A DNA stretch of 26,422 nucleotides from a virus. Taxonomy: Duplodnaviria > Heunggongvirae > Uroviricota > Caudoviricetes. Of the stretch, positions 23,210-23,989 are shown one piece after another. The notes beneath the pieces were generated by a model. The model saw only the letters and a program-made list of their open reading frames with translations, was not told the origin of the DNA and searched no databases. The stretch's first letter is position 1. Each line of letters begins with the position of its first letter. The position numbers were made by a program, and so were the translations under genes. The stretch is from IMG/VR virus record IMGVR_UViG_2541047936_000001; one strand, written 5' to 3'.

Positions 23210-23674
23210 TGTTTTGTTATGAAGGTGTTACTGGTAACGTTAAGGTAATTTAACAAAGAGTCAGTTCCGGACTTTATAGTGTGCTCAGTTCATGGCCAAA
23301 AACGATTTCTGTGATAAATATTTTGAATATTATTTACAGGTAAATGGAGTGGGGCACATGGATAGAAATATTACAATAGAGAATGAAGTATATGCCCGTA
23401 TTGTATGGGCAGAGAAGGCAAAAACACGGTAATTCCGTGTGTTGCCATGATACCTGATTGGCAGAATAGTTGTTTGGTTTTGAGTATATAGTCAGCGTTT
23501 TTTGTTCAGTAATTGCTCCCTCAAAAAATAATAAAATAAGGTGATTATTTTTGTTTATTATTTAGTTTTTTTTGTGTGTTGTTTTATTGTTTTTGCGTGG
23601 TTTGTTTTTTATTGTTATTTCATTAAGGGAAGGTAAATTCAGGATGGCAGTCTGTAGATAATCGGAGGTCACTT

Positions 23675-23989
23675 ATGCTACATGATCACGTGGCAGAATG
23701 TCTGGAGAAAAAAGGACTGTACCGGAGAGCAGCTGAACGATGGGCAAAAGTGATGGTACAGCTAAGTGATGACCAGAAAAGAAAAGTGGCGGCACAGAAA
23801 CGAGCAGAGTGTTTGCGTAAGGCGCGCCGGACTCCGGTTTCACCGGTGAACCTGACCGAAATAAAACAAGCGGTCAACAGACTACATTCTGAGTTGGGAA
23901 TGGGATTTGAAGAGCGGCGGGTATTCCGACGATATAAAGGGACAGGAGAACAGAATACGTCCGGAAACGCGCGGTCAAAAAAATGCTAA
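23675..23989 (+). CDS. PerC-family transcriptional regulator (Pch-like), 104 aa
   Basis: MLHDHVAECLEKKGLYRRAAERWAKVM...; very AT/T-rich upstream region. Confidence 0.55.
   Translation: MLHDHVAECLEKKGLYRRAAERWAKVMVQLSDDQKRKVAAQKRAECLRKARRTPVSPVNLTEIKQAVNRLHSELGMGFEERRVFRRYKGTGEQNTSGNARSKKC

Follow-up and report, generated by a model that had tools for sequence, protein, structure and literature searches.

The closest described relatives of the locus analysed here are the pch genes of EHEC, and chiefly pchA. PchA binds the LEE1 (ler) promoter region, reduces and remodels the occupancy of H-NS and StpA at LEE1, and EHEC needs it for adherence and for expressing the LEE in full (PMC4764244). The protein encoded by the locus described below is identical to PchA, and activation of LEE1/ler has thus been published for this very protein (PMC4764244, PMC6265319). 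According to that literature, PchA would loosen the H-NS nucleoprotein complex at LEE1 and in this way turn on Ler, the type III secretion system and attachment. In EHEC and related E. coli the gene is a master switch for attachment to the gut epithelium. Five perC homologues, PchD among them, exist in O157:H7, and an SOS response induces the pch genes of group 1 (PMC6265319).

Much is also known about the inputs to pchA. The gene is under the control of LeuO and Lrp (PMC4456613). Reviews describe responses of pchA to LrhA, to Lrp with butyrate, to LeuO and to an NtrC/sigma-S pathway. Reportedly, Nakanishi et al. 2006 found that ppGpp with DksA acts via two virulence regulatory genes, pchA being one of them. 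No usable mapped pchA promoter was found in our literature search. At the level of translation, an anti-Shine-Dalgarno segment inside the pchA coding sequence blocks the ribosome site, which is the mechanism of Melson and Kendall 2019, and DicF pairs with this segment and activates pchA translation under low oxygen (PMC7769764, PMC7873438). Given that publications exist on all of these, from the gene and its product to the regulators and the RNA switch, the finding that we describe is an already known one; the gene is named in RefSeq, where the annotation reads 'PerC family transcriptional regulator', and there is no new biology in these aspects of the locus.

The window, by which we mean the whole stretch of 26,422 nucleotides that was analysed, carries the pch coding sequence at 23675-23989 on the plus strand, identified as an open reading frame with a 104-aa product and by a profile match to the PerC family. 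The first-pass annotation had described this product as resembling activators of the PerC/Pch type and had named a profile search without a PerC-family hit as what would speak against this. That search was run and bears the description out: the match to PF06069 (PerC) reaches 149.3 bits where the cut-off is 22.6 (E 3.8e-44), far above the cut-off, and residues 1-89 align to positions 1-89 of the 90 in the profile. A further match, to phrog_994, has an E of 1.4e-45. Indeed, the product is identical at 104 of 104 residues to Sakai PchA (ECs_1091, E. coli O157:H7). Over the 951 bp from 23150 to 24100, 949 of 951 nt are shared with the Sakai pchA locus, so that 2 bases differ, while the same 951 bp have 49 nucleotide differences from pchB and 29 from pchC. 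Therefore, this is the pchA allele of the group-1 pch genes.

Family membership is equally visible at greater distance. A search of 1.84 billion proteins provided 39 representatives, at 26-44% identity, for an alignment of the distant family. All residues whose columns are invariant in this alignment (R17, R18, A19, A20, W23 and C46) are present in the pch product, likewise the near-invariant D4, A7, L10, E11, G14 and R22; the product thus carries the N-terminal PerC signature AE.LE..GLYRRAA.RW and the conserved Cys. Among distinct pch copies, the changes in the coding sequence are distributed 9/3/12 over the three codon positions, with 17 synonymous versus 9 non-synonymous ones, which is variation of a coding type. 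An AlphaFold2 model, made on a shallow alignment of 8 sequences, has five helices and is of moderate confidence (mean pLDDT 69.6, pTM 0.33). A Foldseek comparison of this model with the PDB gave no match with E < 1, and a sequence search of the PDB with the product found no relative.

The gene is a self-contained accessory gene (a 'moron') that has been inserted in a lambdoid prophage, with the lysis genes on one side and the ylcI-terminase region on the other. Directly upstream, on the same strand, lies Rz with the embedded Rz1 (22742-23209, plus strand; PF03245 E 1.2e-48, and annotations of homologous loci), the last gene of the lysis cassette, and position 23210 comes immediately after its stop codon. 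The right edge of the unit is a gene of the YlcI/YnfO family (DUF3950) that converges on pch (24071-24295, minus strand; PF13132 E 1.3e-17; NF041551), after which comes a terminase small-subunit gene, represented by its first 82 nt only (24698-24779). Between the two converging genes, at 24026-24052, there is a hairpin that is preceded by an A-run and followed by a T-run, a predicted terminator common to pch on the plus strand and to the ylcI/ynfO-family gene on the minus strand. The energy of its fold amounts to -14.7 kcal/mol (z -3.7, matched by 1 of 200 shuffles), and it is among the least variable segments of the cassette in 51 distinct copies. The GC content is 0.30-0.36 in the pch upstream region versus 0.50-0.60 in the flanking phage genes. 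Its own terminator, the distinct GC content and the position between lysis and packaging genes together make the anatomy of a phage moron.

Other elements of the prophage are also recognizable in the window. The DicF sRNA gene is found at 6749-6800 on the minus strand (Rfam RF00039, 76.7 bits where the gathering score is 48), in what the annotation of a near-identical prophage gives as a dicA-dicC-dicB module. It is followed by hok/sok (sok) at 13880-14054, three tRNA genes at 17351-17597, the SASA esterase at 18681-20531 and lysozyme at 21873-22406. Two further genes were not located in the window: the Q antiterminator, for which the annotation of the near-identical MEI003 prophage gives a place immediately ahead of the tRNA genes, and the holin, which the annotation of relatives puts between esterase and lysozyme. 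The order lysozyme, Rz/Rz1, pch, ylcI/ynfO and terminase is shared by the window, Sakai Sp11 and Sp14, O145 RM9872, MEI003 and E. albertii, and in Sakai Sp4 pch is placed after Rz as well. The presence of pchA marks the prophage as a virulence-regulating element, and its DicF and pch are a published regulatory pair.

The 780-bp stretch that consists of the upstream region and the gene is present in 673 of 5,426 complete E. coli genomes, with a median of 3 copies per genome. The upstream 465 bp occur at 1878 places versus 1882 for the 780-bp unit, in the same 673 genomes, and among the complete E. coli genomes they were never seen apart from pch. A search of genome representatives yielded two Escherichia relatives only.

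In our opinion the locus is, with high confidence, the standard group-1 pch cassette in its pchA allele, and this estimate covers jointly the identity of the cassette and three proposed layers of its expression: a promoter, late read-through and a translational lock. For the first layer, a promoter would lie somewhere in the roughly 465-bp AT-rich upstream region, and the inputs known from the literature (LrhA, Lrp/butyrate, LeuO, ppGpp/DksA and the NtrC/sigma-S pathway) would act there. A consensus scan offers one candidate for the pch promoter, a sigma-70-like match TTGCCA-17-AATAGT at 23442-23470, which is the sole such match on the plus strand of the region and sits in its conserved upstream part. 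Given that promoter-like matches in the region number 2 versus a shuffle mean of 3.5, which is the chance level, we treat this site as a lead only. In PMC7279287, the primer for PpchA corresponds to about 23174-23194, and the PpchA used there is a fragment of roughly 500 bp that extends from about 23174 to the gene. On the minus strand, a promoter-like match (23557-23528) and a hairpin (23440-23424) could delimit an antisense sRNA, whose fold (z -1.9) is only marginally better than that of shuffles.

For the second layer, late phage transcripts probably continue from the lysis genes into pch after induction of the prophage, because no terminator was predicted in a plus-strand scan from Rz to pch and because the group-1 pch genes are known from published work to be induced by SOS.

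The third layer would be a translational lock. The Shine-Dalgarno sequence GGAGG (23664-23668, plus strand) precedes the ATG by 6 nt and shows no change in 8 diverged copies. Together with the start codon (23664-23675) it is predicted to pair with the anti-Shine-Dalgarno segment UAAGUGAUGACC, located inside the coding sequence at 23763-23774 on the same strand; partition-function folding of four transcript models gives this pairing a probability of 0.55-0.61. In 8 diverged homologues 96% of the cells of the helix are paired, with one compensatory change from U-A to G-C and three changes that preserve wobble pairs. Since 146 of 500 shuffles are as good, this covariation is not significant, which is due to too low a divergence among the homologues. 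A predicted pairing site for DicF overlaps the anti-Shine-Dalgarno segment (23753-23780, plus strand) and contains a perfect 8-bp seed, ACCAGAAA at 23772-23779, complementary to nt 1-8 of the DicF 5' end, UUUCUGGU. The energy of this duplex, -25.1 kcal/mol, is about 3 sd below the window-wide mean of -13.9; it is strong but is surpassed elsewhere in the window. The DicF gene belongs to this prophage too and lies 17 kb upstream of pch; its sRNA would pair with the anti-Shine-Dalgarno segment and so free the ribosome site. The predicted folding thus reproduces the published DicF and anti-Shine-Dalgarno switch and supplies its coordinates in this prophage.

The upstream region deserves separate consideration. 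The first-pass annotation described about 450 bp of it as extremely T-rich. What stands is that the 465 bp from 23210 to 23674 are AT-rich (38.5% T, 67% AT and 10% C, as compared with 26.7% T and 53% AT in the whole window); what does not stand is the extent of the extreme T-richness, which is a property of only about 85-160 bp in the 3' part. In the 231 bp of 23210-23440, A and T are balanced (31% T, 33% A, 64% AT, 12% C). The 161 bp of 23480-23640 have 52% T, 75% AT and 7% C, and a core of about 85 bp, 23541-23625, reaches 67% T and about 80% AT with 2% C. Both the most T-rich and the most AT-rich 100-160 bp of the 26.4-kb window, with 76-82% AT, lie within this region. The other part of the same description, repeated tracts of the TTGTTT type, is well founded. 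Five of the 20 TTGTTT on the plus strand of the whole window are in 23440-23674, a number reached by 6 of 1000 dinucleotide-preserving shuffles of that segment (mean 1.45), and Tandem Repeats Finder reports a degenerate array at 23544-23620 with a period of 21-25, about 3 copies and 72-74% matches.

Two parts of the upstream region can be told apart, both given here on the plus strand. Co-occurrence and low variation define the first (23210-23500), a conserved non-coding stretch, rich in AT (about 64%), that accompanies pch in every case. Composition, Tandem Repeats Finder and the comparison of copies define the second (23501-23640), a T-rich tract with a degenerate tandem repeat of 21-25 bp, which is the hypervariable part of the cassette. 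We measured variation over 51 distinct copies from 80 loci, as the share of cells that differ from the window sequence. This share is about 9.5% in the T-rich tract and the 40 bp before it, 1.4-1.8% in the far upstream region and 0.4% in the pch coding sequence, which amounts to a roughly 25-fold higher variability in the tract than in the coding sequence (0.095 versus 0.004). The changes in the tract concern the length of T-runs (T8 to T7) and include one deletion of 39 bp, and of the 49 differences that separate the pchA allele from pchB, about 40 are located in 23499-23631. Despite the indels, the T content of the core is 54-69% in 51 of 51 variants. Thus the composition is kept while the sequence drifts. 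The tract, a slippage-prone repeat, might be a promoter or leader module that depends on composition: it would offer AT-rich DNA to nucleoid proteins or to regulators of the Lrp/LrhA type or, if transcribed, form a U-rich leader. On that assumption, most of what distinguishes pchA, pchB and pchC in their regulation would trace back to variation of this tract.

Among other explanations of the T-rich region, xenogeneic silencing survives best. Here H-NS, together with StpA and Hha, would polymerise on the T-rich region and keep pch off until an anti-silencer or an environmental cue intervenes. The first-pass annotation had taken the upstream composition as typical of H-NS-silenced promoters. We consider silencing of the pch promoter by H-NS plausible, at somewhat less than an even chance; AT content by itself fits. 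The 76-82% AT of the richest 100-160 bp is above the general level of H-NS binding to foreign DNA (PMC4764244), and the retention of an AT/T-rich composition under sequence drift is what one would expect of a protein that reads composition. Control of pchA has been reported for LeuO and Lrp (PMC4456613), two regulators that are often active where H-NS is bound to a promoter. Finer properties of the sequence argue in the opposite direction. The published 10-bp H-NS consensus TCGATAAATT has a single and weak match in the upstream region, with 2 mismatches (23247-23256, minus strand), and in the window as a whole 38 matches versus 31.5 expected, which is no enrichment. The T-runs show no clear phasing for curvature, with a phase coherence of the run centres of 0.40 at 10.5 bp and 0.56 at 21 bp (five runs only). 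Further, the T-rich region contains only 16 TpA steps in 160 bp, and long T/A tracts are poorer substrates of H-NS than TpA-rich DNA.

One published experiment seems at first to bear on this directly, as a delta-hns host was needed for a PpchA-pchA-PLEE1-gfp circuit to respond (PMC7279287). However, PLEE1 is itself a proven H-NS target (PMC4764244), hence the response is equally explained by PLEE1 and is not assignable to PpchA. Our literature search, PMC4764244 included, gave no H-NS ChIP or hns-mutant data for the pch promoter. Silencing by H-NS would in any case be compatible with the three-layer explanation, as an additional layer at the promoter.

A second possibility, which we regard as rather unlikely, is that the T-rich tract is transcribed, from a start near 23477, as a long U-rich 5' leader and that it acts at the RNA level. 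With the same reservation one can name, for instance, binding of Hfq, binding of ribosomal protein S1 or an entry site for RNase E as ways in which such a leader may work. It is consistent with this idea that the sole promoter-like site of the plus strand (23442-23470) is upstream of the tract, that none of the variants or diverged relatives has lost the strand asymmetry, with T rather than A on the coding strand, and that pchA mRNA is already known as a target of sRNA control of the Hfq class. On the other side, the promoter match is at chance level, and the sequence of the tract is poorly conserved and tolerates a deletion of 39 bp. Nor was a stable conserved structure or a match to an Rfam family found in the tract; at permissive thresholds, an Rfam search of 23100-24400 gave chance-level matches only.

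The upstream region also contains two small open reading frames, neither of which we accept as a gene. The 46-aa frame (23292-23432) has a full-length match to phrog_2157 (E 2.7e-37) and is annotated in some genomes as a hypothetical protein, with no Pfam or NCBIfam match. Its changes are spread evenly over the codon positions (11/12/10), 25 of them being non-synonymous versus 9 synonymous, and its start, stop or frame is lost in 4 types of variants, E. albertii included; on these grounds it is probably non-coding. The 31-aa frame (23541-23636), inside the T-rich tract, begins with a GTG that lacks a Shine-Dalgarno sequence, loses its frame through the common T8/T7 polymorphism and matches no PHROG; its product would be very hydrophobic, which is a consequence of T-rich codons. 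That one or both of these frames are additional small genes, and the unit a small operon, is thus very improbable in our view, since the PHROG family and annotations of the one and the hydrophobicity of the other are outweighed by non-coding variation, broken frames and the lack of family matches or of a ribosome site.

Within the standard-cassette explanation that we prefer, the variability of the T-rich tract invites one further speculation. The tract could be a fast-evolving 'tuning knob', with its composition under selection while its sequence and length drift, such that each pch copy would have an expression level and a response to regulators of its own; the sequence comparison is compatible with this, and we find it unlikely, somewhat more so than a U-rich leader. 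If this were true, a virulence switch present in multiple copies would diversify with no change of the protein. The variability could also simply reflect relaxed constraint together with replication slippage. Part of the idea may already be covered by Honda et al. 2009. What we can offer as a mildly new point is the observation that the allelic variation among pch copies concentrates in a T-rich repeat of conserved composition. This focus of variation is a concrete target for the question why pch copies are regulated differently.

It remains to compare the locus with known systems. The moron concept is that of lambda genes of the bor and lom type. Like these, pch has a lower GC content than its neighbours, a terminator of its own and a place between lysis and packaging genes, and like them it is an accessory gene expressed from the prophage and useful to the host. 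Lambda bor is on the strand opposite to the late operon. Unlike bor, pch points in the same direction as the late operon, thus read-through is possible too, and its own promoter is only a candidate.

EPEC PerC, the founder of PF06069, belongs to the same family and has the same published target, LEE1/ler (PMC4764244, PMC4456613). It differs in its setting, since perC is the third gene of the perABC operon on the pEAF plasmid and not a stand-alone prophage cassette (PMC4456613). The LEE of EPEC needs PerC only under particular conditions; the LEE of EHEC depends on Pch (PMC4764244).

The group-2 protein PchD (ECs_1388, SpLE1), annotated in the Sakai record as 'transcriptional regulator PchD', is a more distant case. 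Its gene is shorter (270 bp), lies 78 bp behind ybdM in an ibrA-ybdM-pchD array, and has little effect on LEE (PMC6265319). The 160 bp upstream of pchD have 54% AT and 26% T and are thus not T-rich, which means that T-richness upstream of the gene characterizes the group-1 cassette rather than the family. A paralogue of 78% identity (P0008) has BLAST similarity that begins only 28 nt upstream of the ATG; owing to this limit, a MAFFT alignment of P0008 farther upstream is not readable as conservation.

The nearest comparisons are with the group-1 genes of Sakai. PchB (ECs_2182, Sp11) and PchC (ECs_2737, Sp14) share the cassette, the position after Rz, the anti-Shine-Dalgarno segment and the DicF site. 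PchB differs from the protein encoded here by 1 residue (V6L) and PchC by 2 (V6L and V58M). The nucleotide differences of pchB are concentrated in the T-rich tract and the stretch just before it, about 23499-23631, and pchB is also changed at 23662 and 23670, next to and inside the Shine-Dalgarno helix. Sakai PchA (Sp4) is alike in its protein, upstream region, T-rich tract, Shine-Dalgarno and anti-Shine-Dalgarno segments and terminator, and has Rz/Rz1 on one side. In Sp4, however, the segment from the lysis genes to pchA is inverted between IS629 and ISEc8, while the window has the ancestral orientation. The prophage described here is located at tRNA-Ser (serU)/mtfA, which is the site occupied in Sakai by Sp14, the prophage that carries pchC.

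The DicF sRNA gene lies at 6749-6800 on the minus strand of the prophage, within the dicA/dicC/dicB module (Rfam, 76.7 bits), and pch, the PerC-family regulator gene at 23675-23989, is the published target of DicF. The two are about 17 kb apart on the same prophage, and hence the activator RNA and its target mRNA are carried together by a single mobile element.

A second RNA may be encoded next to pch itself. On the minus strand upstream of the gene there is a promoter-like site at 23557-23528 and a terminator-like hairpin at 23440-23424, followed by TTTTGCC. Together these would frame a candidate antisense RNA of about 100 nt (23557-23424), which folds only slightly better than its shuffles (z -1.9) and has no match in Rfam. 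The plus strand of the same region contains a 46-aa ORF (23292-23432), which matches a PHROG family of its own (phrog_2157, E 2.7e-37) and for which some genomes carry an annotation. In our opinion it is not a gene, because of its substitution pattern: changes are spread over the three codon positions as 11/12/10, non-synonymous changes outnumber synonymous ones (25 versus 9), and the ORF is broken in four variants. Its annotation is likely an over-annotation propagated via databases.

The composition of the region upstream of pch can be set against two other sequences. The diverged Pch paralogue P0008 (104 aa, 78% identical) is not encoded in any lysis cassette, its neighbours being an EspG-like fragment and an IS110 transposase, and according to BLAST the nucleotide homology of its locus to the window starts only 28 nt before the ATG. 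Despite the lack of BLAST homology beyond that point, the 160 bp upstream of P0008 are 74% AT and 41% T. Within the prophage, the large island at 10600-13400 (68-73% AT in windows of 230-465 bp) exceeds the pch upstream region in AT over long spans; in a near-identical prophage its genes are annotated as a SMEK-domain protein, a class I SAM-dependent methyltransferase and a hypothetical protein. Upstream of the late genes are the sok antitoxin RNA of a hok/sok module (13880-14054), three phage tRNA genes (17351-17597; Ile, Arg and Arg by annotation of relatives) and the sRNA STnc100 (18371-18543).

At the right end, the terminase small-subunit gene is reduced to its first 82 nt, with the break at 24779/24780 (within 24698-24831), and the remnant is joined to sequence leading up to the gene for a side tail fibre (24832-26151). 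This gene has an N-terminal domain of the lambda Stf type and Gly-X-Y collagen-like repeats at 25500-25900 (Pfam Collagen, E 3.6e-18), which raise the GC there to about 0.70. In near-identical prophages, such as that of MEI003, terminase and portal genes follow instead. The junction is absent from all complete RefSeq E. coli genomes, and hence the head and tail genes have been lost from this prophage.

At the left end, where related prophages have their integrase gene, there is an IS3-family insertion sequence (about 1930-3150) adjoining the tRNA attachment site; the ALIL pseudoknot at 2213-2329 is the programmed-frameshift pseudoknot of this element. The prophage occupies tRNA-Ser (serU, 892-978), adjoining mtfA (1-837). 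In Sakai the same site is occupied by Sp14 with pchC, whereas the present prophage carries there the pchA allele, with 2 differences to pchA versus 29 to pchC, which suggests that pch cassettes are swapped among resident prophages.
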